Below are positions 4,327 to 15,946 of a DNA stretch of 15,946 nucleotides, piece by piece (the stretch's first letter is position 1; each line of letters opens with the position of its first letter). Source of the stretch: a virus (taxonomy: Duplodnaviria; Heunggongvirae; Uroviricota; Caudoviricetes); IMG/VR virus record IMGVR_UViG_2645728048_000025. One strand, written 5' to 3'. The notes beneath the pieces are model-generated. The model did not search any database. It was given only the letters and a program-made list of their open reading frames with translations, and was not told the DNA's origin. The translations under genes and the position numbers were made by a program.

Positions 4327-5763
4327 TCAGAATCCTCCTTTCTTCTTGGACTGCGGTTCCTCGCGTTCACGGCGGCGCATTTCAGCAGACTGTTGGTCTG
4401 TGTCATAAATAGCGCCATTTGCCTGTATGCAATACACCGTGCCGGTATTGCCATGACGATTGAGGCGAAGGATTAGTTCGGTTTCACCAGGAGGAACGCT
4501 GTCATCAAAAGCACCTTCACGATGGATCCCCACCCAATAATCGCAATCCTGTTCAATCTGCCCTGTATCTCGTGAGTCACTTGGTAATGGGCGTTTATTG
4601 GTTCGGCTTTCCAGTGCGCGGTTAAGCTGTGTCAGAAGCACAACAACGCAATCAAGCTCTTTGGCAAGGTTCTTCAGTCCTTTGGTGATCATGCCGTAAG
4701 CAAGGTCGTTGCGATCGGCCTTCTCAGCAGTCATTAGTGTCAGGTAATCGACCAGAATCATGCCAACACATCCTTTTTCTCGCTTGATTCGACGGCTTTC
4801 GCTGACGATTTGAGCCAGAGATAATCCCGGCGTGTCGTCGATGTAAAGCAGGTCGATTTCACTCAAGCGATTGGCTGTTTCGATCGCCCTGTTGAAGTCA
4901 CCATCGTAATCACCCTGATAGCCGTCATCAGCGTCATTTGTCGCCGGAAGGTAAAAAATATTCGGGTTAACACCTGACTTCTGTCCCACCAGTTTTTCCA
5001 GTATCTGGTCACCTGGCATTTCAAGGCTGAACATCAGAGCGGGCTTTTTCTCATGCACTGCACAGTTGATTGCCATCTGGCTGTATAGCGTCGTTTTCCC
5101 CATCTTAGGGCGAGCGCCAATGACAAACAAAGAGCCTTTCACCAGACCTTTCGGTGACAGCATCCTGTCCAGCGATGGGATCCCTGTGCTCATTCCCCGT
5201 TGTTCGCCTGATGGGTCAAATCGCTTCTCAAGGTCGCTAACCCAGTCTTCCATGACCTCACCAAATGAGCGAAGGCCGCGACGCGATCCGGTTTTTGCAT
5301 GGTCTGTCAGTTGCGTGAAAATCGCCTGAATAGCTTCGTACTTCTGCGTTGCAGTCATTCCATTGCGGGAATAGAGCAATTCCGTCGCTTCAGTCATGCG
5401 GTTGATGGCGTAGCGTTCCATTGCGGTTTCACGAACCTGCATTGCATAGGCAACGATGTTTGCTGCGCTTGGCGTGTTCTTTGCGATCTCAGCGATATAA
5501 GCAAAACCGCCAACAGACGCCGTTAACGATTTACGCTCCAGTTCATCGAAAAGCGTCAGGCCATCTACTGGCTTTTGCTCCCGGTGCATTCTGGTTATTT
5601 CTTCGAAAAGGATTTTGTGTGGTCGGCCGTAAAATGAATCAGGCTTCAGCATCGCCAGAACTTTCTGGACGCGCTCACTGCTGTCATCATCCAGAAGCAA
5701 TCCACCAATCACCGCCTGCTCTGCCTCGATGCTATGGGGCGGCGCATAAAAATTATCGGTCAT
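4327..5763 (-). CDS. Replicative DNA helicase, DnaB family (P22 gene 12-like)
   Basis: Walker A GARPKMGKTT and DnaB-like layout over about 478 aa. ATG at 5763 (MTDNFYAPPH) preceded by GAGGGTGAA is preferred over the track's GTG start at 5778; it overlaps the O-like stop by 11 nt. Confidence 0.88.
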   Translation of the reverse strand: MTDNFYAPPHSIEAEQAVIGGLLLDDDSSERVQKVLAMLKPDSFYGRPHKILFEEITRMHREQKPVDGLTLFDELERKSLTASVGGFAYIAEIAKNTPSAANIVAYAMQVRETAMERYAINRMTEATELLYSRNGMTATQKYEAIQAIFTQLTDHAKTGSRRGLRSFGEVMEDWVSDLEKRFDPSGEQRGMSTGIPSLDRMLSPKGLVKGSLFVIGARPKMGKTTLYSQMAINCAVHEKKPALMFSLEMPGDQILEKLVGQKSGVNPNIFYLPATNDADDGYQGDYDGDFNRAIETANRLSEIDLLYIDDTPGLSLAQIVSESRRIKREKGCVGMILVDYLTLMTAEKADRNDLAYGMITKGLKNLAKELDCVVVLLTQLNRALESRTNKRPLPSDSRDTGQIEQDCDYWVGIHREGAFDDSVPPGETELILRLNRHGNTGTVYCIQANGAIYDTDQQSAEMRRREREEPQSKKKGGF

Positions 5764-6563: not shown

Positions 6564-6725
6564 TTAACGACGCCCATGTTTCACTCCTGCTTTGGCTAGT
6601 CTGTAAACACCAACAAGGCGCTCTGCGAACGCCCTGTTATTTGCTGCGGCTACCACTAATCCCTCAGGTGAATCAGGGTGTCGAATCTCTTCTTTTTCCT
6701 GGTATTTCTTACGACGTTTTGTCAT
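6564..6725 (-). CDS. Small basic ORF (53 aa) between cII and the O-like gene; uncertain
   Basis: MTKRRKKYQEKEEIRHPDSPEGLVVAAANNRAFAERLVGVYRLAKAGVKHGRR with AGGAG 5 nt upstream of the ATG. Its start codon coincides with a CATAAT -10-like hexamer on the opposite strand, so the interval may be regulatory instead. Confidence 0.3.
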   Translation of the reverse strand: MTKRRKKYQEKEEIRHPDSPEGLVVAAANNRAFAERLVGVYRLAKAGVKHGRR

Positions 6726-6759
6726 AATTACTCCTGTGGATTGATCCAGTCTTTCTACA

Positions 6760-7038
6760 TCAGGCCTCGAAGAATTCGCCGTTCTTCGGGGCTTTTTCTT
6801 TTGTCAGCATTCTGGCTACTTTCTTAGCCAGTTCCGCCAACTCCTCGTCTTCAACACCCCATTCAAGAACAGCAAGAAGCATTCCCATTTTGGGGATGAA
6901 GCTGTCTTTCCATCGAGAAATTTGCGATTCATTAATCCCTAACGCGTCGGCAACCTTTCGCTGACCACGTACAGCAATTCGATTCAGGATGTTGCTTGTA
7001 ATTGCATTCGCTTTCTTGCGAGTACTTGTAAGTTCCAT
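6760..7038 (-). CDS. cII: CII transcriptional activator (lambda cII / P22 c1 homologue, 92 aa)
   Basis: From the internal ATG (MELTSTRKKANAITSNILNRIAVRGQRKVADALGINESQISRWKDSFIPKMGMLLAVLEWGV...); the ESQISRWK ... MLLAVLEWGV stretch matches lambda CII as I recall it. Confidence 0.85.
   Translation of the reverse strand: MELTSTRKKANAITSNILNRIAVRGQRKVADALGINESQISRWKDSFIPKMGMLLAVLEWGVEDEELAELAKKVARMLTKEKAPKNGEFFEA
6767..6802 (+). terminator. Plus-strand intrinsic terminator inside the 3' end of cII (antisense), OOP-RNA-like
   Basis: Stem CGAAGAA / TTCTTCG (6768-6774 / 6782-6788) with a 7-nt loop, then GGGC and TTTTTCTTTT. Antisense to the cII 3' end, the position of the OOP terminator in lambda. 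Confidence 0.45.
6992..7005 (+). promoter_or_regulatory. CII-binding motif TTGC-N6-TTGC, candidate PRE -35 region (transcription towards cI)
   Basis: TTGC (6992-6995), ttgtaa, TTGC (7002-7005) on the plus strand within the 5' part of the cII coding region, the arrangement of PRE in lambda. Confidence 0.45.
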
Positions 7039-7096
7039 ATGTAAGTATTTCCTTAACAAATAAGAAGTTATGCGCATCAACTTATGCGCGTTGTAT

Positions 7097-7139
7097 TCCC
7101 GCATTTCGGCGGGAATGAGGACCATGACTGTTAAAGAGC
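7097..7139 (-). promoter_or_regulatory. nutR: boxA GCTCTTTAACA plus boxB hairpin
   Basis: Minus-strand boxA (plus 7129-7139) and boxB TCCCGCCGAAATGCGGGA (plus 7097-7114), immediately downstream of cro; both elements identical to nutL. Confidence 0.7.
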
Positions 7140-7146
7140 GGTGTTG

Positions 7147-7341
7147 CTATTTGTTTTTCTTGTTGCTTGGGAAAGGACGAACTTCCTCTCCAATCACACT
7201 GCCATCAGGCTTTACCGTAACCATGATGTTACGGCCTGCCAGAATGGCCTTGCTGATAGCGCACTGGATTACACCAAAGTCACTGGCTGCTTTAGCCTGT
7301 CCATGGATTTTGGCGTAATCGGCAAGTGTCATTCGAATCAT
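7147..7341 (-). CDS. cro: Cro repressor (64 aa)
   Basis: [62 protein letters not shown], collinear with lambda Cro (C-terminal FPSNKK). ATG at 7341 preceded by GGAGAG. Confidence 0.85.
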
Positions 7342-7370
7342 ATGCACTCTCCGTTATTAACCATGAACAA

Positions 7371-7399
7371 AGAATACTACAGGTATTCAAAGCAATCAA
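7371..7399 (-). promoter_or_regulatory. PR promoter candidate: -35 TTGATT, 17-nt spacer, -10 TATTCT
   Basis: Minus-strand hexamers with 17-nt spacing, overlapped by operator sites 1 and 2; the same -10/operator arrangement recurs at PL. Confidence 0.5.
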
Positions 7400-7436
7400 T
7401 ACTCAGGGTATTTTTAGTTTAAGTACCTTAGCTATT
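7372..7436. promoter_or_regulatory. OR operator triplet, consensus AATAC-N5-GTATT
   Basis: Site 1 GAATACtacagGTATTC (7372-7388, perfect 17-bp dyad); site 2 AATACtcaggGTATT (7398-7412); weaker site 3 AGTACcttagCTATT (7422-7436). Centre spacing about 24-25 bp, between divergent cro and cI. Confidence 0.65.
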
Positions 7437-7447
7437 AGAATTAAGCT
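7413..7447 (+). promoter_or_regulatory. PRM candidate giving a leaderless cI transcript
   Basis: -10-like TAGAAT at 7436-7441 lies 6 nt upstream of the cI ATG with no Shine-Dalgarno; weak -35-like TTTAGT at 7413-7418 abuts operator site 2, as OR2 abuts the PRM -35 in lambda. Confidence 0.4.
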
Positions 7448-8164
7448 ATGGAAAATAAAAAATCACTGACGACAGAACAGCTCGAAGACGCTAAGCGGCT
7501 TAAGGCTTTGTATGAGTCAAAAAAGAAAGAATTGGGAATAACCCAATACTCAATCGCTGATGAACTGGGTATCACCCAAGGAGCGGTAGGGCATTATCTT
7601 AATGGCAGAAACGCGCTAAACGTTGAGGTTGCATCTGGTTTTGCACGATTGTTGCAAGTCTCAATTGCTGATTTTAGCCAGTCAATTGCTGCCAAGGTTG
7701 CAGAACAGGCAGAAAGCCTTAAGAGCGATGCCAACGTAAGGTATGCAGGGGAATACAGAGCAGGAAAGAGGTATCCGGTGTTAAGCAGTATCCAGGCTGG
7801 CTCGTGGTGTGAAGCATGCGAACCATACACCATTAAAGACATAGATGTTTGGCTTGAGTCTGACGCGCATATTCAAGGTAATGCGTTCTGGCTTAAAGTG
7901 GAAGGTGATTCAATGACGGCACCGGTTGGGTTAAGCATTCCAGAGGGAACATTCGTTCTTTTCGATACCGGAAGGGAGGCGATCAACGGCAGCTTGGTCA
8001 TAGCAAAACTTTCTGACTCTAACGAAGCAACATTCAAGAAGCTGATAATCGACGGCGGAAATAAATACCTCAAGGGACTTAATCCTGCATGGCCTCTCGT
8101 GCCAATCAATGGAAACTGCAAGATTATAGGCGTTGCAATTGAGACAAAACTAAGGCTGGTTTGA
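7448..8164 (+). CDS. cI: CI repressor (HTH N-terminal domain plus S24 LexA-like autopeptidase domain)
   Basis: HTH region (ITQYSIADELGITQGAVGHYLNG), putative Ala-Gly cleavage site in YPVLSSIQAGSW, catalytic Ser in EGDSM and Lys in FKKL; collinear with lambda CI. Confidence 0.9.
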   Translation: MENKKSLTTEQLEDAKRLKALYESKKKELGITQYSIADELGITQGAVGHYLNGRNALNVEVASGFARLLQVSIADFSQSIAAKVAEQAESLKSDANVRYAGEYRAGKRYPVLSSIQAGSWCEACEPYTIKDIDVWLESDAHIQGNAFWLKVEGDSMTAPVGLSIPEGTFVLFDTGREAINGSLVIAKLSDSNEATFKKLIIDGGNKYLKGLNPAWPLVPINGNCKIIGVAIETKLRLV

Positions 8165-8181
8165 TCACGCAAGGGGCGATT

Positions 8182-8550
8182 ATGGTTGGAACCGCTATAG
8201 CAAGCTTTTTGGGGATGTTGGCAATCTCAACAATTTACGGCTTAGCGCATGCTTTTATTGCGAAATCTCTATCAGAAAAAATAAGCCAGGCTTGGGCGCA
8301 TAGATCTGCTCGTTTCATGATTCTAGTGGTCATAGCAATACAAGGGATATCTGCATTTATCCTCTATGGATCAAGCTTATACCTGTTGTATCAAGGCGCG
8401 ACATTTACGCCTTACACCAGTGATTACGGAACTCTATACGATGGTAGTGAAGACATCTCTATGGCTTGGATCGTCTTTGGTTTATCTATGGCCGTGTCTG
8501 TTGTAGCAGACATCATTAAGGTAATTCTCGTCTTAACCTTCGCTGACTAA
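8182..8550 (+). CDS. Small integral membrane protein (about 122 aa) immediately downstream of cI; function unknown
   Basis: ATG at 8182 preceded by AAGGGG, 18 nt after the cI stop. Three long hydrophobic segments. Visibly more AT-rich than cI. Occupies the rexAB/sieB-type slot. Confidence 0.6.
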   Translation: MVGTAIASFLGMLAISTIYGLAHAFIAKSLSEKISQAWAHRSARFMILVVIAIQGISAFILYGSSLYLLYQGATFTPYTSDYGTLYDGSEDISMAWIVFGLSMAVSVVADIIKVILVLTFAD

Positions 8551-8636
8551 CCCATAATCCCGGCAGCAATAGCTATCGGGATCCACTTCACATATCCCGC
8601 ATAAAAAGCACTGAACAAGCAGACACCGAAAAAATA

Positions 8637-8723
8637 AATATCCTTTGTATTCATTCGCTTATCATTATTTCACCAAAAATAAATACCTTGTGTATTTACA
8701 CAATAAAATACCTACAGTATTCT
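8637..8723. promoter_or_regulatory. OL operators and PL promoter candidate
   Basis: Operator matches AAATACcttgtGTATTT (8681-8697, perfect dyad), AATACctacaGTATT (8707-8721), and a weaker AATATccttTGTATT (8637-8651). PL candidate -35 TTTACA (8695-8700), 17-nt spacer, -10 TATTCT (8718-8723), overlapped by operators exactly as at PR. Confidence 0.55.
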
Positions 8724-8769
8724 TTAGCCATCAGCAGAACGCTTGAAGCCAAACGGAACAGATTGGCAG

Positions 8770-8810
8770 GCTCTTTAACATTGATGGGATTGTCCCGCCG
8801 AAATGCGGGA
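8770..8810 (+). promoter_or_regulatory. nutL: boxA GCTCTTTAACA plus boxB hairpin
   Basis: boxA 8770-8780; boxB TCCCGC-cgaaat-GCGGGA 8793-8810; about 40 nt downstream of the PL candidate and upstream of N; identical to nutR. Confidence 0.7.
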
Positions 8811-8917
8811 ACCAAAGAGTAGTTGGCTTTGGGGTGACGTGAAGTGCAGCTGCACGACGGCAACCGGAAGATAAGCACCCGGCGCGTCACCGCCAAAGTC
8901 AATCATCGGAGGTCAAC

Positions 8918-9190
8918 ATGACAGTAGTCATTACATATCTGGCTGACGATAACGCCAGAAATCGCCGCAGAGCACGCAGACAGGCTCAACGTGAACAGGC
9001 AATGCAAGAGCAGCAACTGGCGCGAAAAATTGCGCTAAAGCTCTCTGGTTGCGTCAGAGCAGATAAAGCAGCATCACTCGGAAGCCTTCGCTGCAAGAAG
9101 GCAGATGAATGCAGTGGAAGTATTTGCCTGCCAAACGTAGCTCTTTACGCGGCAGGCTACCGTAACTCCAAACAACTGACAGCAAGATGA
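8918..9190 (+). CDS. N: N-like transcription antiterminator (arginine-rich motif)
   Basis: 90-aa ORF with N-terminal ARM (DDNARNRRRARRQAQREQAM); GGAGG 5 nt upstream of the ATG; first gene downstream of PL/nutL. Confidence 0.72.
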   Translation: MTVVITYLADDNARNRRRARRQAQREQAMQEQQLARKIALKLSGCVRADKAASLGSLRCKKADECSGSICLPNVALYAAGYRNSKQLTAR

Positions 9191-9250
9191 CTTGTGTTGG
9201 TCGCCAGAAAATGAAATTAGGCAGCAAACCACTTATTTGAGGACTGATAC

Positions 9251-9493
9251 ATGAGAGTAAAAACTATGGGCGCAAGCCCATTAAGTGGTCGTATTTTTCA
9301 AGGAACATTAAACACTGAAAAAGGAATGTGGGTGGGAAAGAAAGAAGATGTAACCGAACAGGCAGTTAAGGCAGTAGCTGAACACATGATGATAAAAGAC
9401 CAGAAATATGCATACGAAACGAAGGATGGCAAATGGCTGATAATAAGTCATCAAATAGTTGATAAATTACCAGAAGAGTTTATTGCTGATTAA
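9251..9493 (+). CDS. Hypothetical protein (80 aa) directly after N
   Basis: ORF with GAGGA upstream; no recognisable family; followed by a hairpin and an intrinsic terminator. Confidence 0.45.
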   Translation: MRVKTMGASPLSGRIFQGTLNTEKGMWVGKKEDVTEQAVKAVAEHMMIKDQKYAYETKDGKWLIISHQIVDKLPEEFIAD

Positions 9494-9621
9494 AATTATT
9501 TTGGCATAAACAACAGAATAAACACTGCACTGTGTATTCATTCCAACGAGTGAATACACTGAGCAATGTCGCTCGTAACTAAACAGGAGCCGACTTGTTC
9601 TGATTATTGGAAATCTTCTTT

Positions 9622-9645
9622 GCCCTCCAGTGCGAGGGCTTTTTT
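9622..9645 (+). terminator. Rho-independent terminator in the PL operon (tL-like)
   Basis: Stem GCCCTC / GAGGGC (9622-9627 / 9634-9639) with a 6-nt loop, followed by TTTTTT (9640-9645). Confidence 0.6.
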
Positions 9646-9711
9646 ATATGCATACCAATAACGCTTCACTTGAGGCGTTTTCGTTATGCAATCAAACAGA
9701 AGGAGCATCCT

Positions 9712-9882
9712 ATGCAACAGTTCGCTATTGCAGGGGCGGCATCGGTTCGCCCTTTCAACCCGATTTTATCGGTGCAGCATTCACGAAAAAATATTTTAAC
9801 CGGAGCAGACTTTAAACAACCAAGAATGAAAAGTTTGCTCGAAAAGCTTTGGGATATTTTGAAACAACAAGGCCGTCCATGA
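9712..9882 (+). CDS. cIII: CIII-like protein (56 aa; putative FtsH-inhibitor that stabilises CII)
   Basis: MQQFAIAGAASV ... SLLEKLWDILKQQGRP, resembling lambda CIII as recalled (MQYAIAG ... RLIDILNQPG); AAGGAG 7 nt upstream of the ATG. Confidence 0.55.
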   Translation: MQQFAIAGAASVRPFNPILSVQHSRKNILTGADFKQPRMKSLLEKLWDILKQQGRP

Positions 9883-10037
9883 GTTTTACAGATAACTGGT
9901 CAGACGAAGAATTCATTCGTCAGATGAAAGAATTAATCGGTAACGAAGGAGATATTCATGTCACTTGCAACCACAGTGAAGGAGAGCAAGTTACAGAGAC
10001 GCATGTACACGCAGAAAGCTCTCTGGTATCGCCATAA
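9879..10037 (+). CDS. Small acidic protein (52 aa) translationally coupled to cIII; Kil-position ORF
   Basis: ATGA overlap with the cIII stop; MSFTDNWSDEEFIRQMKELIGNEGDIHVTCNHSEGEQ...; no recognisable family. Confidence 0.4.
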   Translation: MSFTDNWSDEEFIRQMKELIGNEGDIHVTCNHSEGEQVTETHVHAESSLVSP

Positions 10038-10136
10038 TGGCGACCGCGAAGGAATGCGGGTATGCCTTAATTTGTCCCGAGTCGAAGTATTAAATCAGCG
10101 TTATTTCCTTGGGCCTTGTCCATTCTGAGGTGAATT

Positions 10137-10844
10137 ATGGATTTGAACAAATTCGATGAGCCATTCAGCCCTGAAGATATCGAATGGCGAATACAGCAAA
10201 GCGGTAAAACACGCGATGGCAAGGTGTGGGCTATGGTGCTGGCTTATGTCACGAACCGGGCAATCATGAAACGCCTGGACGATGTTTGCGGCAAAGCAGG
10301 ATGGCGCAATGAATACCGCGATATTCCCAACAACGGCGGCGTTGAATGCGGCATATCAATAAAGATTGATTCCGAATGGGTAACCAAATGGGATGCTGCT
10401 GAAAACACGCAGGTAGAAGCCGTCAAAGGTGGTCGTTCCGGTGCAATGAAGCGCGCTGCCGTTCAGTGGGGAATCGGTCGGTATCTGTATAACCTTGAGG
10501 AAGGTTTCGCACAAACATCTCTCGATAAAAAGCAGGGGTGGCACAGGGCAAAACTGAAGGATGGAACAGGATTTTACTGGCTCCCTCCATCGCTTCCGGG
10601 ATGGGCAATCCCAGCATCAGATAACAAACCATCACCAGAAAATACCAACCAGAAATCTCCATCGGTTGACTGCGAACAAATCCTGAAAGACTTCAGCGAT
10701 TATGCGTCAACAGAAACTGACAAGAAAAAACTCATCGAGCGTTATCAGCGTGACTGGCAATTAATGGCTGGCAATGAGGATGCGCAGGCTAAATGCGTTC
10801 AGGTAATGAGCATCAGAGTTAACGAACTAAAACAGGCGGCATAA
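10137..10844 (+). CDS. Single-strand annealing recombinase: Rad52/Sak-like core with an Erf-like C-terminal tail
   Basis: Core motif AVQWGIGRYLYNLEEG is typical of Rad52-family annealing proteins; the C-terminal 60 aa (ILKDFSDYASTETDKKKLIERYQRDWQLMAGNEDAQAKCVQVMSIRVNELKQAA) resembles the C-terminus of P22 Erf as recalled. GAGGTGA RBS. Confidence 0.72.
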   Translation: MDLNKFDEPFSPEDIEWRIQQSGKTRDGKVWAMVLAYVTNRAIMKRLDDVCGKAGWRNEYRDIPNNGGVECGISIKIDSEWVTKWDAAENTQVEAVKGGRSGAMKRAAVQWGIGRYLYNLEEGFAQTSLDKKQGWHRAKLKDGTGFYWLPPSLPGWAIPASDNKPSPENTNQKSPSVDCEQILKDFSDYASTETDKKKLIERYQRDWQLMAGNEDAQAKCVQVMSIRVNELKQAA

Positions 10845-11351
10845 ATGGCAAGCAGAGGCGTAAATAAGGTGATTATCCTTGGTCGGGTAGGACAAGACCC
10901 GGAAGTTCGATACTCACCATCAGGAACAGCGTTCGCTAACCTGACAATAGCCACGTCAGAACAATGGCGAGATAAAAATACTGGCGAGCAAAAGGAATTG
11001 ACTGAATGGCATCGTGTTGCTGTATCCGGGAAACTGGCTGAGGTCGTGGGGCAGTATGTGAAAAAAGGTGATCAGATTTATTTCGAGGGAATGCTGAGAA
11101 CCAGAAAGTGGAAAGACCAGTCAGGGCAAGACCGTTACACAACCGAGGTTCATGTCGGAATTAATGGCGTGATGCAGATGCTTGGCGGCATTGGCGACAG
11201 CAAACAACAAGCAGCCAGCAGGCAATCACAGAAGCCACAGCAGCAATCATCACCAGCACAACACAACGAACCTCCGATGGATTTTGACGACGATATACCC
11301 TTTGCACCAGTAACTCTCCCCTTCCCTCGTCACGCTATTCACGCAATTTAA
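10845..11351 (+). CDS. ssb: Single-stranded DNA-binding protein with a 15-aa extension beyond the DDDIPF tip
   Basis: OB-fold N-terminus ([39 protein letters not shown]), Gln-rich linker, MDFDDDIPF, then [15 protein letters not shown] before the stop. Confidence 0.85.
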
Positions 11352-11364
11352 TCAGGAGAAAATC

Positions 11365-11661
11365 ATGCCAGCGCCTCTGTATGGTGCGGACGACGCGCGC
11401 CGCTGTTCCGGCAATTCCGTATCGGAGGTGCTGGATAAATTCAGAAAAAACTACGACCTGATAATGTCGCTACCGCAGGAAACGAAAGAGGAAAAGGAAT
11501 TTCGCCACTGTATATGGCTTGCAGAGAAAGAAGAACGCGAGCGAATTTACCAGACATCAATCCGACCATTCCGCAAAGCCACATATACCCACTTCCCTGA
11601 ATATATCGACCCGCGCCTGCGTAATTACCGCTCACGCTATGGCGCTATCAGTAATGACTGA
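11365..11661 (+). CDS. Hypothetical protein (98 aa)
   Basis: ORF with AGGAG upstream; no recognisable family. Confidence 0.5.
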
Positions 11662-11671
11662 GGAATTTACC

Positions 11672-11839
11672 ATGAGAGGACTTGCATACAATCCCGGAAT
11701 TCTTCCGGCAGAAATGATTATTCGCCAACGCGTAAAGCCAATGCCATCGATAGAGGAATTGCTTAAGAGAAATTCTTTTCCATCAGTGAATCAAAACAAA
11801 TATCTGAATGCGATGTGGCGTAAAGGAGGCAAGCAGTGA
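11672..11839 (+). CDS. Hypothetical small protein (55 aa)
   Basis: Internal ATG of the track ORF 11519..11839, preceded by GAGGAA; begins 11 nt after the previous stop. Confidence 0.4.
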
Positions 11840-12090
11840 GTAATTCCGCACGACTACAGCTTGGTTTTTCACCGCTATCAAAAACTATCATGCTGGCAAA
11901 AATGCGCGATGTTGAAGGTGGACGTATGCGCGTTGGCAATGATCCAGGTCGTGATGTTACCAATGAGGCTGCTCAATTGGTGTGGCGACTGGTCATGGCT
12001 GAAGGTGGTGAGATCGCGTGGGAGCTGGATGATGGTTCTCGCATGGTGTTGAAGGCAGAAAAGCAGGAGGCAACCAGTGAGCAAGATTGA
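11836..12090 (+). CDS. Hypothetical protein (84 aa, GTG start)
   Basis: GTG preceded by AAGGAGG, overlapping the previous stop (GTGA). Confidence 0.45.
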
Positions 12091-12721
12091 TTATCAAAAG
12101 CTTCGTGAAATCGCTGAAAAAACAAAAATTGCCGGTGAAGCACCTGTAATGCCTTGCGATCAGCGAATTAATGCGCTTAACGATTTTATGAAGCACTTTT
12201 CGCCAGATATCGCGCTGGCATTGTTGGATGAACGGGAAAGAAACCAGCAATACATCAAAAGCCGCGATCAGGAGAACGAGGATATTGCGCTTACGGTTGG
12301 GAAGCTGCGCGTTGAGCTGGAAGGCAAAGACAGCAAAATAGCCAATCTTACCGCCGAACGCGATGCTCTTCGTGAAGGTGAGATGGGCGACGCTAGGCAT
12401 AGCAACACACGGGCCGCAGCTGATATCTACTTCCAACTGGTCGAGGAGTGCGAAATTCCTGCTGGCGGTTCTCTGGTCGAGTACGTTGACGATATGCGCG
12501 AGAAGCTGGAAGCCGCAGAGAAGCGCATTGCAGAGTTAGAAAGTGGTTCTCAGGCACAAAAGTTAGTTGAAGCAATCATTGTTGCGATAGAAAACGAACA
12601 GGAAAGGCTTTTTGATGAAGATTACCTAATGGATTCGAAAGAATGCATTGACGTAATTCGTGAAGAAGTAAAGCGATGGAATGATTCCCGCGCCGCTGGC
12701 ATTCGCATCAAAGGAGAGTGA
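12077..12721 (+). CDS. Ea22-like coiled-coil protein (214 aa, GTG start)
   Basis: N-terminus [17 protein letters not shown] resembles the conserved start of Ea22-like prophage proteins as recalled; central heptad-rich segment. AGCAGGAGG RBS. Confidence 0.55.
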   Translation: MSKIDYQKLREIAEKTKIAGEAPVMPCDQRINALNDFMKHFSPDIALALLDERERNQQYIKSRDQENEDIALTVGKLRVELEGKDSKIANLTAERDALREGEMGDARHSNTRAAADIYFQLVEECEIPAGGSLVEYVDDMREKLEAAEKRIAELESGSQAQKLVEAIIVAIENEQERLFDEDYLMDSKECIDVIREEVKRWNDSRAAGIRIKGE

Positions 12722-12722
12722 T

Positions 12723-12914
12723 ATGGACGGACAAATATCAATCGTTCGACCAGGAGCATGTGACGATCGCGAAATACGAATAATTATTCGTCTGGCAATG
12801 GGGAAAACAATAACTGCTCTCATTACCCCAGAAAATCTCGCATTAGCATTAACAGGAAAGTCAGACCTGCCAGTAGAGCTAAAGCTGCGAAATGTTGAGA
12901 TTAAGGTGAAATAG
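12723..12914 (+). CDS. Hypothetical small protein (63 aa)
   Basis: ATG preceded by AAAGGAGAG, one nt after the previous stop. Confidence 0.45.
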   Translation: MDGQISIVRPGACDDREIRIIIRLAMGKTITALITPENLALALTGKSDLPVELKLRNVEIKVK

Positions 12915-12916
12915 CT

Positions 12917-13561
12917 ATGACCACTATTACCAAAGAACGTATCGAATTATTCATTAAAAATCCGCTTGAAAACGGGCTTACCCGTGGCGAACAAATGGAA
13001 CTGGCACGAATTGCACTGGCCTCGCTTGAGGCAGAGCCAGTTGGTGCATTCCACATTGCAGAACAGCAAGTTGACGGTACAAGTGACTACATCAAGGATG
13101 GAGAGTGGCCTATTGATAATGGGATTATTGAAGTCTACGCCGCTCCGCCAGTACCGGTAGTACCTGCTGCATTACCTGAGAACGACGATGAGGACGGGCA
13201 TGACATTGATTATCTTGAGCCATCTGAAGTTTACGCGCTTGGGCGAACAGCTGGATGGAGCGCCTGCCGCGCCGCCATGCTTCAGTCCGGAAACTTTCGG
13301 GAAAACAAGAATTCGTCAACCAATAATTTTCGGGATATTGCGGAAACGTCAACCAACTCTCCGGTAACTCCGGATAGTTGGATAAGCTGTAGTGAGCGAA
13401 TGCCAAACGAAGAAGATGTTTTGGTTTATTGTTCAGACACAAAAGAGCAGATGGTAGGGTTTCACAAAGGTAAAGGGTTATTTCAATTCTTTTACATGAA
13501 CGGTGTTGAGGGGGTATGTGAGCCGTCACACTGGATGCCGCTACCAGAGCCTCCACTTTGA
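12917..13561 (+). CDS. DUF551-like phage protein (214 aa)
   Basis: C-terminal WISCSERMPNEEDVLVYC ... HWMPLPEPP matches the DUF551 pattern common in lambdoid early-left accessory regions (recalled). Confidence 0.6.
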   Translation: MTTITKERIELFIKNPLENGLTRGEQMELARIALASLEAEPVGAFHIAEQQVDGTSDYIKDGEWPIDNGIIEVYAAPPVPVVPAALPENDDEDGHDIDYLEPSEVYALGRTAGWSACRAAMLQSGNFRENKNSSTNNFRDIAETSTNSPVTPDSWISCSERMPNEEDVLVYCSDTKEQMVGFHKGKGLFQFFYMNGVEGVCEPSHWMPLPEPPL

Positions 13562-13657
13562 AAGCGAAGCTTATACATATCTTTTACATCAGCAATCTAT
13601 TGTTAATCTCCAATCAATGTTACGTTGTCATCTCACTCATGCTTTGGAGGTAGTGAT

Positions 13658-13837
13658 ATGTCTTGTCCAAAATGCGGTTCTGGAAATATTGCAAAAGAAA
13701 AAACAATGCGTGGATGGTCTGGAGATTATGTGTGCTGCGATTGCGGATACAACGACTCTAAAGACGCATTTGGAGAGCGTGGTAAAAACGAGTTTGTTAA
13801 AATTAATAAAGAAAGCGAAGGCAACGAAAAAAGCTAA
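13658..13837 (+). CDS. Small zinc-ribbon protein (59 aa)
   Basis: MSCPKCGSGNIAKEK ... YVCCDCGYND with paired CxxC motifs; GGAGG upstream; Lys/Glu-rich tail. Confidence 0.5.
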   Translation: MSCPKCGSGNIAKEKTMRGWSGDYVCCDCGYNDSKDAFGERGKNEFVKINKESEGNEKS

Positions 13838-13902
13838 TTTATTTATTCATATATGAAAACAATGTAACCAATATTCGAATTGAAGAACTGAAAGAACACC
13901 AA

Positions 13903-13926
13903 GCCGCCTGATGGCGGTTTTTTATT
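13903..13926 (+). terminator. Rho-independent terminator closing the plus-strand early-left gene block
   Basis: GCCGCC-tgat-GGCGGT followed by TTTTTTATT. Confidence 0.6.
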
Positions 13927-13933
13927 GCCTGAT

Positions 13934-13949
13934 TTGCAGGTTCGATTCC
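13934..13949 (+). other. tRNA-derived fragment A (T-arm segment TTGCAGGTTCGATTCC); candidate att core
   Basis: 16 nt matching the T-stem/T-loop region of tRNA-Arg (argW) as I recall it; no 5' tRNA portion precedes it. Confidence 0.45.
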
Positions 13950-13968
13950 CTATTCGGAGATAGCACTC

Positions 13969-14169
13969 ATGCAACACGAACTACAACCTGATTCACTGGT
14001 TGATTTGAAATTCATCATGGCCGATACTGGCTTCGGTAAAACCTTCATCTATGACCGGATTAAGTCCGGCGACCTGCCTAAAGCCAAAGTTATCCACGGA
14101 CGAGCAAGATGGTTATATCGTGACCATTGTGAATTCAAAAATAAGCTCTTAAGCCGCGCCAATGGGTAA
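13969..14169 (+). CDS. AlpA/Xis-family small DNA-binding protein (excisionase-like, 66 aa), with no adjacent integrase
   Basis: LVDLKFIMADTGFGKTFIYDRIKSGDLPKAKVIHGRARWLYRD fits the AlpA-type winged-helix pattern; GGAGA upstream of the ATG. Confidence 0.55.
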   Translation: MQHELQPDSLVDLKFIMADTGFGKTFIYDRIKSGDLPKAKVIHGRARWLYRDHCEFKNKLLSRANG

Positions 14170-14242
14170 AATAGCGGGTAAAATATTTCTCATATCTCAA
14201 AAACACCATTCCAATCAATCCCCTGCTGCCTCAAGTAGATGT

Positions 14243-14257
14243 CTGCAGGGGACACCA
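14243..14257 (+). other. tRNA-derived fragment B (3' end CTGCAGGGGACACCA); candidate att copy or host junction
   Basis: Matches the 3'-terminal acceptor/T-stem sequence of argW as recalled, including the terminal CCA; the preceding bases AGATGTC look like a degenerate T-loop. Confidence 0.45.
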
Positions 14258-14645
14258 GATACCCTTCAAACGAAATCTACCTTCACCCCGTAAAAGATGG
14301 GTTTGGCAGCACACTTGCCTTATATCTACTCATTTTTACTGCAACAGGTTGAAATCTCAGCACTGTCAGAAAGCGCTGATGACTAAACAGCCCTGGGCCG
14401 GGCGATGTAACCATCACACAGAATCCTGATAGCGAAATATGGCGTGACTCGATACTTCACTCCGCAATGCATTCCTTGATGAATTCGCAGGACCGTGATA
14501 CACGGGACAGGTCACTGAATGACGACAATGTCCTGGAAATCAGCGAACCGCGCATCTGAAGTACATTTGAGCGACTGTACCAGAACATGAATGAGGCGTT
14601 TGGATTAGGCGATTATTAGCAGGGCTAAGCATTTTACTATTATTA

Positions 14646-14689
14646 TTTTCCGGTTGAGGGATATAGAGCTATCGACAACAACCGGAAAA
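14646..14689. repeat. 11-bp perfect inverted repeat TTTTCCGGTTG / CAACCGGAAAA with a 22-nt spacer, just downstream of the cscB stop
   Basis: Seen directly in the sequence; no U-tract follows the stem on either strand, so it is not a canonical intrinsic terminator. Confidence 0.4.
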
Positions 14690-14698
14690 AGTTTACGT

Positions 14699-15946
14699 CT
14701 ATATTGCTGAAGGTACAGGCGTTTCCATAACTATTTGCTCGCGTTTTTTACTCAAGAAGAAAATGCCAAATAGCAACATCAGGCAGACAATACCCGAAAT
14801 TGCGAAGAAAACTGTCTGGTAGCCTGCGTGGTCAAAGAGTATCCCAGTCGGCGTTGAAAGCAGCACAATCCCAAGCGAACTGGCAATTTGAAAACCAATC
14901 AGAAAGATCGTCGACGACAGGCGCTTATCAAAGTTTGCCACGCTGTATTTGAAGACGGATATGACACAAAGTGGAACCTCAATGGCATGTAACAACTTCA
15001 CTAATGAAATAATCCAGGGGTTAACGAACAGCGCGCAGGAAAGGATACGCAACGCCATAATCACAACTCCGATAAGTAATGCATTTTTTGGCTCTACCCG
15101 ATTCACAAAGAAAGGAATAATCGCCATGCACAGCGCTTCGAGTACCACCTGGAATGAGTTGAGATAACCATACAGGCGCGTTCCTACATCGTGTGATTCG
15201 AATAAACCTGCATAAAAGACAGGAAAAAGTTGTTGATCAAAAATGTTATAGAAAGACCACGTCCCCACAATAAATATGACGAAAACCCAGAAGTTTCGAT
15301 CCTTGAAAACTGCGATAAAATCCTCTTTTTTTACCCCTCCCGCATCTGCCGCTACGCACTGGTGATCCTTATCTTTAAAACGCATGTTGATCATCATAAA
15401 TACAGCGCCAAATAGCGAGACCAACCAGAAGTTGATATGGGGACTGATACTAAAAAATATGCCGGCAAAGAACGCGCCAATAGCATAGCCAAAAGATCCC
15501 CAGGCGCGCGCTGTTCCATATTCGAAATGAAAATTTCGCGCCATTTTTTCGGTGAAGCTATCAAGCAAACCGCATCCCGCCAGATACCCCAAGCCAAAAA
15601 ATAGCGCCCCCAGAATTAGACCTACAGAAAAATTGCTTTGCAGTAACGGTTCATAAACGTAAATCATAAACGGTCCGGTCAAGACCAGGATGAAACTCAT
15701 ACACCAGATGAGCGGTTTCTTCAGACCGAGTTTATCCTGAACGATGCCGTAGAACATCATAAATAGAATGCTGGTAAACTGGTTGACCGAATAAAGTGTA
15801 CCTAATTCCGTCCCTGTCAACCCTAGATGTCCTTTCAGCCAAATAGCGTATAACGACCACCACAGCGACCAGGAAATAAAAAAGAGAAATGAGTAACTGG
15901 ATGCAAAACGATAGTACGCATTTCTGAATGGAATATTCAGTGCCAT
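14699..15946 (-). CDS. cscB: LacY-family (MFS) oligosaccharide:H+ symporter, sucrose permease CscB-like (415 aa, complete)
   Basis: N-terminus MALNIPFRNAYYRFASSYSFLFFISWSLWWSLYAIWL and overall layout match LacY-family permeases, and to my recollection E. coli CscB specifically. The start codon is at the last base of the window. Confidence 0.8.
   Translation of the reverse strand: MALNIPFRNAYYRFASSYSFLFFISWSLWWSLYAIWLKGHLGLTGTELGTLYSVNQFTSILFMMFYGIVQDKLGLKKPLIWCMSFILVLTGPFMIYVYEPLLQSNFSVGLILGALFFGLGYLAGCGLLDSFTEKMARNFHFEYGTARAWGSFGYAIGAFFAGIFFSISPHINFWLVSLFGAVFMMINMRFKDKDHQCVAADAGGVKKEDFIAVFKDRNFWVFVIFIVGTWSFYNIFDQQLFPVFYAGLFESHDVGTRLYGYLNSFQVVLEALCMAIIPFFVNRVEPKNALLIGVVIMALRILSCALFVNPWIISLVKLLHAIEVPLCVISVFKYSVANFDKRLSSTIFLIGFQIASSLGIVLLSTPTGILFDHAGYQTVFFAISGIVCLMLLFGIFFLSKKREQIVMETPVPSAI

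Follow-up and report, generated by a model that had tools for sequence, protein, structure and literature searches.

The window analysed here, a stretch of 15,946 nt, very probably carries at its end the right boundary of a lambdoid prophage of the HK620/Sf6/KplE1 type, inserted in argW and abutting the chromosomal csc regulon, within the argW-dsd variable region. Reading toward the end of the window, the last prophage gene, torI, is followed by an attR site, a segment of DNA specific to csc-positive strains, a decayed piece of a DUF4942 gene, a hairpin and an intact cscB gene on the opposite strand. Among 5426 complete E. coli genomes, a sequence search found the entire junction in 2621, and one contig (L025) is 100% identical to positions 6699-15946.

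The prophage part of the window shares 97.5% identity with HK620 over 63% of the length. Its last gene, torI (13969-14169, plus strand), encodes the recombination directionality factor (excisionase), a product of 66 aa with 100% identity to both K-12 TorI and HkaC of HK620, and the name torI is also given by PGAP in near-identical genomes. As expected for an argW-integrating prophage, the gene adjoins attR. An arm repeat of attP and attR, in which GGGTAAAATA occurs twice (14163-14185), was detected with a repeat finder, and the stretch of the HK620 record that matches it, mapped via alignment, is annotated as an attP repeat_region. The sequence from torI to the core (14170-14242, plus strand) is a phage-derived attR arm with homology to CPS-53, HK620, Sf6, HK633 and Kapi1: positions 13900-14257 are 96-98% identical to HK620, Sf6, HK633 and Kapi1, 14170-14257 (88 nt of query) are 96.6% identical to K-12 CPS-53, and the homology with HK620, Sf6, Kapi1 and K-12 CPS-53 stops exactly at 14257.

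The attR core, CTGCAGGGGACACCA (14243-14257, plus strand), is an exact k-mer match to nt 61-75, the 3' end, of the K-12 tRNA-Arg(CCU) gene argW, and corresponds to what the preliminary description had called the tRNA-like fragment B; the annotated attP core of HK620 maps to 14243-14258. A tRNA scan of the window found none; the pieces of argW lack the length needed for a call. On its left this 15-nt core has sequence that matches the HK620 attP arm, on its right sequence that matches the attB flank of a prophage-free csc-positive strain (L003), and the attP, attB, attL and attR sequences align as the scheme of site-specific recombination predicts. An integrase system of the IntS type recombined the phage attP core, equal to the last 15 nt of argW, with argW, and this event left an attR composed of the phage arm, the core and host DNA. 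The attR arm, the arm repeats, the 15-nt core and TorI are shared with the KplE1 (CPS-53)/HK620/Sf6 module at argW (PMC3509656, PMC2951348), the former paper describing the argW recombination module. The host-side arm differs, being of the csc-positive type (GATACCCTTC...) in the window and of the dsdC type in K-12, and the attL/intS end of the window's prophage falls beyond the window and beyond the reach of L025. Four GenBank records of "phage genomes" that contain cscB-cscK-cscA begin at a gene boundary inside host DNA; they were rejected as evidence of transduction and are read as over-extended prophage boundaries.

The host DNA that follows attR is a scar, made up of about 125 nt of DNA, a DUF4942 fragment, the hairpin and cscB. 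The interval 14170-14698 had been described as free of ORFs, and it does lack any ORF of 60 aa or more, the longest ones that overlap it measuring 43, 44 and 43 aa; these small ORFs have no NCBIfam match and are treated as spurious. It is not featureless, however, since a pseudogene relic lies inside it. The first segment (14258-14382) is argW-downstream DNA specific to csc-positive strains, which directly follows intact argW in those that are prophage-free and stands in place of the K-12 argW-dsdC spacer; a sequence search gave no match to it in K-12 or elsewhere in E. coli, and neither Pfam nor Rfam matched it. An Rfam scan of 13800-14800 returned no match at E<=1 within 14170-14698. A candidate STnc130 at 13892-14019 (minus strand) was rejected as sub-threshold (24 bits, where the gathering score is 55) and lies outside the junction, and a sigma-70-like promoter at 14616-14643 (plus strand) was ignored as a single weak site where 2.2 are expected by chance.

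The DUF4942 relic (approximately 14383-14610, plus strand) is a decayed internal piece of the gene, identified by tblastn, PF13708, DNA identity and PGAP. It covers residues ~76-151 of a 280-aa DUF4942 protein (51% identity in tblastn, E=1e-18), has an in-frame stop and lacks both ends. The frame that starts at 14260 matches profile positions 5-62 of 190 in PF13708 with 35.2 bits (cutoff 25). Intact DUF4942 genes elsewhere in E. coli share 73-76% identity with the DNA of the relic, and PGAP calls a partial DUF4942 at this position. There being no intact full-length frame, the piece is a pseudogene relic. An extension of the relic toward argW was not accepted, the match there being weak and non-colinear (E=0.14) and the other frames having no Pfam match. 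A shorter relic of the same gene is retained beside a csc allele of E. coli that has diverged to 90% DNA identity. The usual place of a DUF4942 (PF13708) gene is the distal end of a tRNA-linked integrative island of the CP4 type, and an intact copy is the last gene of such an island beside tRNA-Ser; the window's relic likewise passes the Pfam threshold and adjoins a tRNA gene, but only ~27% of the gene is left, with its in-frame stop, and the remaining island is absent. The relic would be what an earlier integrative island of the CP4 type left behind at argW. This former island is a step that we infer, because the relic spans only ~76 codons and an intact csc-bearing island at argW was not found.

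The gene at the end of the window, cscB (14699-15946, minus strand), is an intact ORF of 415 aa that encodes a predicted sucrose:H+ symporter of the LacY family, assigned by profile matches and alignments. Its ATG lies at the last base of the window, and its stop codon (14699-14701) is 441 nt from the end of the 15-mer at 14243-14257; the preliminary description, which had a complete CscB-like permease on the minus strand with its start codon at the window end and a distance of 440 bp to the tRNA-like fragment, was accurate on these points. The protein matches TIGR00882 with 590.9 bits (cutoff 220; profile positions 1-396 of 396) and PF01306 LacY_symp with 640.3 bits (profile positions 2-412 of 413), one residue separates it from the PGAP-named CscB WP_001197023.1, and its nearest solved structure is LacY (E=2e-62). 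Coupling of H+ and sugar in LacY needs the charged residues R144, R302, H322 and E325, together with E126 and E269. In an alignment with K-12 LacY, residues R147, R300, H320 and E323 of CscB are identical, D129 aligns with E126, and E270 falls three residues off the E269 column, and the alignment in this way bears out the coupling residues of a LacY-family permease. The conserved glycine of the N-R-x-G-x-K-N motif in loop 8/9 is absent from the window's CscB, in which residue 285 is E; LacY has G at this position, as do the 14 genome loci and 43 metagenome loci compared. Lying in a conserved motif, the G285E substitution may leave this permease defective; it bears on activity and not on membership of the LacY family.

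Beyond the window end, where the preliminary description had proposed to look for cscK, cscA and cscR, all three are present in the identical contig L025, which runs on through PfkB/cscK, GH32/cscA and LacI/cscR genes into a 72-aa dsdX stub and dsdA. The same genes are found in a second locus (L001), in which PGAP names them cscK, cscA and cscR. Because L025 continues with the csc genes, the permease is not a LacY-family paralogue devoid of csc neighbours. The resulting gene order (argW, an optional lambdoid prophage, cscB-cscK/cscA/cscR, truncated dsdX and dsdA) is that of the known argW-dsdCXA/csc region of E. coli (Jahreis et al. 2002; Moritz & Welch 2006; PMC3032704), in which dsdC and the 5' part of dsdX are replaced by csc; here likewise the segment replaced relative to K-12 extends from the argW 3' end into dsdX. 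The location of csc at the argW hotspot of E. coli and of a lambdoid prophage at argW in the csc-positive E. coli W has been reported (PMC3032704, PMC11251922, PMC4366372), and Jahreis 2002 and Moritz & Welch 2006 are the sources that these papers cite for csc/argW. The arrangement of csc next to argW is thus already described in the literature, real but ordinary, and no essential difference separates it from the present copy, which has a mosaic HK620-like prophage and a G285E CscB. The csc/dsd alternative at argW determines which of the two, sucrose or D-serine, an E. coli strain uses, and the choice between them is linked to pathotype and to the selection of industrial strains. The refinements obtained here are small, namely the mapping of attR, DUF4942 relic and hairpin on the junction at base level, a probable donor-flank hairpin and G285E, and none of the three alters the understanding of the system.

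It had also been suggested that the prophage and csc both used the same tRNA-linked insertion hotspot. Both do lie in the argW-linked variable region, since attR is at argW and the junction, compared with relatives, directly follows intact argW in prophage-free csc-positive strains; site-specific use of argW, however, is shown only by the prophage and not by csc. The csc segment would have joined the relic DNA by illegitimate recombination or deletion, and the joining would also have removed dsdC and most of dsdX. That csc reached argW as cargo of a tyrosine-integrase island, integrated site-specifically like the prophage, is unlikely. Such an origin would fit the csc-positive specific DNA, which starts exactly at the last base of argW, and the DUF4942 relic between argW and cscB, a gene typical of CP4-type tRNA-linked islands. 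The hallmarks of a site-specific csc island, an integrase and a distal tRNA 3'-end repeat, were nevertheless not found: in the prophage-free strain L003 no gene lies between argW and cscB and no integrase accompanies csc, and near the cscR/dsdX boundary no second argW repeat was found as a k-mer of at least 9 nt. Moreover, this far boundary falls inside dsdX, which implies deletion or replacement, and the same csc module occurs in Citrobacter at yjfF-fbp, in tRNA-free surroundings.

The 3' untranslated region of cscB contains a two-tier hairpin (14646-14689, minus strand), recognised with a repeat finder, by folding and by conservation. It is separated from the cscB stop codon by a spacer of 9 nt (14690-14698, minus strand; ACGTAAACT as read on the cscB strand), and the TAAAC motif immediately before it is common to csc-positive and csc-less Citrobacter loci. 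The perfect 11-bp inverted repeat with a 22-nt spacer that had been noted here was located with arms at 14646-14656 and 14679-14689, of 11 nt each, 100% complementary and 22 nt apart, and the structure consists of an 11-bp outer stem, an internal loop and an inner stem of 4-5 bp (GAUA/UAUC). Folding energies range from -16 to -20 kcal/mol, with z-scores from -3.9 to -5.2 (7 variants). This is the only perfect 11-bp inverted repeat of the window with a spacer of 3-40 nt. Dinucleotide shuffles yielded 0.23 such repeats per whole window (at least one in 16% of shuffles) and 0.007 per junction, and because of these frequencies the inverted repeat by itself is only mildly beyond chance; that it is real follows from its fixed position after cscB and its conservation across genera.

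In eight distinct sequences from E. coli and Citrobacter, 15 of 15 pairs are invariant: none of the 30 paired columns varies, against 14 of 19 unpaired ones (Fisher p=1.7e-8) and 12 of 18 flanking ones. No compensatory change occurs in the stems among these eight sequences, all pairs being simply invariant, and arm conservation could therefore equally reflect a role at the DNA level or in protein binding. Divergence within Escherichia alone is too small to prove selection, with 0 changes in 30 paired positions where ~3 are expected at 10% divergence. The hairpin is present in 2641 of 5426 E. coli genomes, always beside cscB, and occupies one place per genome (maximum 2) across these 2641; being single-copy, it was rejected as a dispersed repeat of the REP/BIME or MITE kind. 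A CscR operator was also rejected, the cscK-cscA control region having different palindromes (AGTTAACGTTAACA) and nothing that resembles the arms. In a pattern scan of metagenomes for the arms, 52 of the first 120 matches listed were of the csc type and 68 were unrelated palindromes with other loops, so the arms are not a general motif. In one Escherichia genome an IS66 element is inserted inside the hairpin loop, and in another an IS605-type element lies 30 nt from the hairpin.

In Citrobacter amalonaticus, the locus yjfF-MCP-fbp-mpl contains the same 5-kb cscR-cscA-cscK-cscB module, at 80-83% identity, and then the same hairpin. Compared with E. coli, csc is there at another chromosomal site that is not tRNA-linked, a chemoreceptor gene comes after the hairpin, and the hairpin is also found in csc-less relatives; homology between the two species ends 3-15 nt beyond it. 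In three csc-less Citrobacter-like contigs (L142, L067 and L130), yjfF and the MCP (chemoreceptor) gene flank the same hairpin, with a 48-nt filler where csc-positive genomes have 5 kb. These contigs make it probable that the hairpin stems from the donor's flank and travelled together with csc; by sequence comparison, the inverted repeat thus probably belongs neither to the prophage nor to the tRNA site but to the DNA that arrived with csc. For the csc segment of E. coli, the source would be a Citrobacter-like locus in which csc stood between yjfF and the hairpin-chemoreceptor pair, and the hairpin would be donor flank brought along. The csc-less contigs could in principle be deletion derivatives and not an ancestral empty site; the C-terminal tails of YjfF favour the empty-site reading only mildly. 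The DNA just past the hairpin in E. coli was rejected as a relic of the start of the Citrobacter MCP gene, alignments being no better than shuffles (p = 0.1-0.86); the 35-nt spacer between the DUF4942 relic and the hairpin (14611-14645) has no significant similarity to this gene start (shuffle p >= 0.1) or to DUF4942.

It may be proposed, tentatively, that the hairpin is a functional cis-element native to the Citrobacter-type yjfF-MCP region, which was carried to Escherichia with csc and re-used as an element of the cscB 3' end. In Citrobacter its 3' arm and the likely ribosome-binding site of the chemoreceptor gene overlap, and by this position the hairpin could couple or gate translation of that gene. 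If the proposal is true, the hairpin shows from which donor locus E. coli obtained its csc regulon. On the cscKB transcript, the features of the sequence indicate that the hairpin most likely acts either as a 3' stem-loop, which would block 3'->5' exonucleases, or as a mark of the 3' end, which would be set after factor-dependent termination; the first ~80 nt of the cscB 3' UTR have a C/G ratio of 1.8 and are weakly rut-like. Some stem-loops at the 3' end that lack a U-tract stabilise mRNA, as REP-type hairpins do at operon ends. The hairpin of the window is likewise stable, placed just past the stop codon and devoid of a U-tract; it differs from the REP type in being single-copy and two-tier, with an interior of 22 nt, and its function is putative. 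In the literature, no paper linking cscB with an sRNA or describing a cscKB terminator was found.

Intrinsic (Rho-independent) termination does not appear to be the function of this structure, in agreement with the earlier remark that it is not a canonical terminator: a terminator scan reported no site at 14646-14689 and a T-run after the hairpin is absent on both strands. A non-canonical intrinsic terminator of cscKB, or one that works in both directions and would halt read-through from torI as well, is decidedly unlikely, even though a stable hairpin that begins 9 nt past the stop codon has a position typical of operon-end terminators. The runs that are present are ordered T-run, stem, A-run, the opposite of a terminator, and pair with each other, the interior measures 22 nt against a canonical loop of 3-8 nt, and in Citrobacter 4-8 nt separate the hairpin from the start codon of a downstream, co-directional gene, which is an odd site for a strong terminator.

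It is very unlikely that the hairpin is a DNA-level element at the edge of a mobile csc segment, for instance a palindrome bound by a protein or a hotspot of recombination or insertion. The breaks in homology 0-15 nt from its outer edge, both between E. coli and Citrobacter and between two E. coli alleles, the invariant arms without covariation and the two insertion elements in or near it would agree with such a role. Yet the other end of the csc module has no matching repeat, the motif occurs once per locus and in single copy per genome, and it is unlike the palindromes of the cscK-cscA control region; among the metagenomic arm matches, those with other loops seem to be palindromes that arose by chance in unrelated DNA, and in Citrobacter the boundary between csc presence and absence lies upstream of the hairpin and not at it. 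Finally, a chance palindrome in decaying junk DNA, functionless in E. coli, is highly improbable: although the shuffled windows do produce such repeats and any native role may have been lost with the MCP gene that follows in Citrobacter and is missing in E. coli, the stem columns stay unchanged where interior unpaired and flanking columns vary, and the hairpin is kept in all those E. coli genomes, the divergent csc allele included.

The open reading frame at 14699-15946 (minus strand; 415 aa, its ATG being the window's last triplet) scores 590.9 bits against the oligosaccharide MFS transporter model TIGR00882 (cutoff 220) and 640 bits against Pfam LacY_symp, with the whole profile covered; LacY and CscB are 30% identical in alignment, and R147, R300, H320 and E323 of CscB fall on the coupling residues of LacY. 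The public contig L025, 100% identical to window 6699-15946, continues past the window end with PfkB (cscK), GH32 (cscA) and LacI (cscR) genes, a 72-aa GntP/DsdX stub, dsdA, emrY and emrK, and the same genes are named cscB, cscK, cscA and cscR by PGAP in L001. The permease had been proposed to adjoin sucrose-utilisation (csc) genes, which these neighbours bear out; since csc genes lie beside it in both L025 and L001, the alternative of a LacY-family paralogue with none adjacent does not hold. Positions 13900-15946 have matches of 95-99.7% identity in 2622 of the 5426 complete E. coli genomes, where they carry the annotations torI and oligosaccharide/sucrose MFS transporter; the sequence of the window is that of E. 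coli.

The body of the prophage, a lambdoid mosaic, comes closest to HK620 and mEpX2, and its torI gene (13969-14169) encodes a product 100% identical to K-12 TorI and HK620 HkaC. From torI, homology with HK620, Sf6, HK633, Kapi1 and K-12 CPS-53/KplE1 extends to 14257 and ends there, with the core CTGCAGGGGACACCA (14243-14257), which equals nt 61-75 of the tRNA-Arg(CCU) gene argW and falls on the attP core that the HK620 record annotates, just as the GGGTAAAATA repeats (14164-14185) fall on an attP arm repeat marked there. Aligned with HK620 attP, K-12 attL and attR, and the end of argW in a csc+ strain free of the prophage, the window shows a textbook attR, made of phage arm, core and host arm. 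This argW recombination module has been characterised in detail (PMC3509656). The final 30 nt of argW, a contiguous stretch of that gene, are split around torI, with TTGCAGGTTCGATTCC (argW nt 46-61) upstream at 13934-13949 and CTGCAGGGGACACCA downstream, separated by 293 nt; the split is also present in K-12 CPS-53 and in HK620, where the TTGCAGGTTCGATTCC piece overlaps a stretch annotated as the 'phage integration' promoter that depends on cII. Immediately before the torI promoter region, at 13901-13920, a hairpin resembles a canonical terminator and carries a T-run (AAGCCGCCTGATGGCGGTTT TTTATTG), and an STnc130 Rfam match on the minus strand (13892-14019) is sub-threshold, at 24 bits vs 55.

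That prophage and csc share an argW-linked hotspot, as the preliminary description held, is right and has been in the literature for a long time: in E. coli W, for example, argW houses a lambda-type prophage and the csc genes lie in the interval from the argW region to dsdX (PMC3032704), csc at the argW-linked region is also covered in PMC11251922 and PMC4366372, and the replacement of dsdC-dsdX by csc is the published arrangement. The junction arrangement is real, was correctly read and is already known. In csc+ strains without the prophage, the counterpart of 14258-14698 comes straight after an intact argW, with cscB next; relative to K-12, the csc+ chromosome diverges at the final base of argW and remains different as far as a site within dsdX. 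Neither an integrase nor a second argW repeat was found at the far side of csc, so site-specific integration of csc is not supported.

The junction (14170-14698) indeed contains no ORF of at least 60 aa, those overlapping it reaching only 43-44 aa. Its plus strand carries at 14383-14610 a relic of a DUF4942 (PF13708) gene, already flagged by PGAP, which corresponds to residues 76-151 of a 280-aa protein (51% identity, E=1e-18, one in-frame stop) and whose frame scores 35.2 bits against Pfam DUF4942 (threshold 25; profile positions 5-62 of 190). Intact paralogues have 73-76% DNA identity to it, and in the locus examined the DUF4942 gene is the last of a CP4-type island (DUF932, antirestriction, RadC-like, YeeU/CbtA and others) with an adjacent tRNA gene. 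A CP4-type island probably once occupied argW, csc having joined its remnant. With only 90% DNA identity to the common allele, the csc allele of one E. coli assembly (L007, SCPM-O-B-8794) suggests either a long-standing polymorphism or acquisition from a different Escherichia lineage; it retains a smaller remnant of this DUF4942 gene, and the csc-DUF4942 association is therefore old. The L007 junction is itself shorter, with 171 nt (5302-5472) between the hairpin that follows cscB and the argW-proximal 24 nt.

This hairpin corresponds to the inverted repeat reported in the preliminary description, with arms TTTTCCGGTTG (14646-14656) and CAACCGGAAAA (14679-14689) and a 22-nt spacer. No other perfect 11-bp inverted repeat with a short spacer occurs in the window, against a dinucleotide-shuffle expectation of 0.23 per window and 0.007 per junction; by itself the repeat is weakly significant, and it is the context that makes it real. 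It begins 9 nt past the stop codon on the cscB strand and its predicted fold has an outer stem of 11 bp and an inner one of 4-5 bp (GAUA/UAUC), with an internal loop between them, at energies of -16 to -20 kcal/mol and z-scores of -3.9 to -5.2 in seven natural variants. In 2641 genomes it is single-copy and cscB-adjacent in every case; it matches no Rfam family and bears no likeness to the cscK-cscA control-region palindromes. In eight distinct hairpin sequences, all 15 pairs are invariant, whereas 14 of the 19 unpaired columns in the interior vary (Fisher p=1.7e-8), as do 12 of the 18 in the flanks, and no pair covaries. Judged from these sequences, the arms are under constraint, which would fit an RNA role as well as one in DNA or in protein binding. 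Insertion sequences occur at or near the hairpin in L006 (~5259-5341) and L023 (~560-600): an IS66-family element lies inside its loop in Escherichia sp. MOD1-EC7003, and a TnpB/IS605-type element ends 30 nt from it in an ETEC genome.

The hairpin also follows cscB in C. amalonaticus, whose 5-kb csc module is 80-83% identical to that of E. coli, and homology between the two stops 3-15 nt past it. There, csc is flanked by yjfF, which encodes a galactofuranose ABC permease, and by a short gene for a chemoreceptor (MCP), beside fbp and mpl, with no tRNA nearby. Among the matches listed in a metagenome scan for the arms, 52 were csc-type, three of these on csc-less Citrobacter-like contigs, L142 (2601-2650), L067 (~12950-13000, reverse strand) and L130, where the same hairpin lies between yjfF and a 370-aa HAMP-MCP gene, 4-8 nt before the start codon of the latter. 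In L142 and L067, 48 nt (YjfF tail and spacer) replace the 5 kb carried by csc+ genomes; L130 has the L067 sequence upstream of the hairpin and is too short for comparison across the site. Because the csc presence/absence boundary in L142 and L067 falls at the stop codon of cscB, short of the hairpin, the hairpin probably belongs to the Citrobacter flank rather than to csc itself. The csc segment of E. coli would then have come from a Citrobacter-like locus and carried the hairpin along, a donor-flank origin that is possibly new, as a minor point. The csc-less contigs could instead be deletion derivatives; the YjfF tails mildly favour ancestral empty sites. An MCP-start relic suspected in E. 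coli was rejected, its alignment being no better than shuffles.

As regards function, the repeat is not a canonical terminator, as had been stated: no terminator-like site was called, and on neither strand does a T-run come after it; with the U-tract absent and an interior of 22 nt, an intrinsic terminator was rejected. Our best guess among the functional options, to which we give an even chance, is a 3' stem-loop protecting or defining the cscKB mRNA end, in which case termination would come from Rho further downstream; a C/G of 1.8 in the first ~80 nt of the cscB 3' UTR lends weak support to such termination. A non-canonical terminator is one rival, and a DNA-level breakpoint or binding site is another, with which the constrained arms are equally compatible; a functionless passenger has to be set beside 15 invariant pairs. 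In the csc-less Citrobacter-like contigs, the 3' arm may occlude the ribosome-binding site of the MCP gene, given its position 4-8 nt before the ATG.

The window's CscB has E at residue 285 (codon at 15092-15094, minus strand), within the conserved N-R-x-G-x-K-N motif of loop 8/9, whereas G occupies this position in every other homologue checked, namely 14 genome loci (to 62% identity), 43 metagenome loci and LacY. The exact protein was found in only seven contigs of a large protein collection. Although the ORF is intact, the E285 protein may be impaired, G285E being a candidate loss-of-function allele and possibly a new, minor point. Separately, in the prophage-free csc+ strain YJ1 (L003, 6457-7704), cscB contains an internal stop and has a pseudogene annotation, which fits the csc decay reported to be frequent in some lineages.

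Four GenBank 'complete phage genome' records (L018, which is ON470589.1, ON470594, ON470608 and ON470622) include host cscB, cscK and cscA; two of the four also contain tRNA-Arg, and one opens precisely with the start codon of cscA. The prophage boundaries in these records were probably drawn too far out, although specialised transduction of csc from its attR-adjacent position is conceivable.
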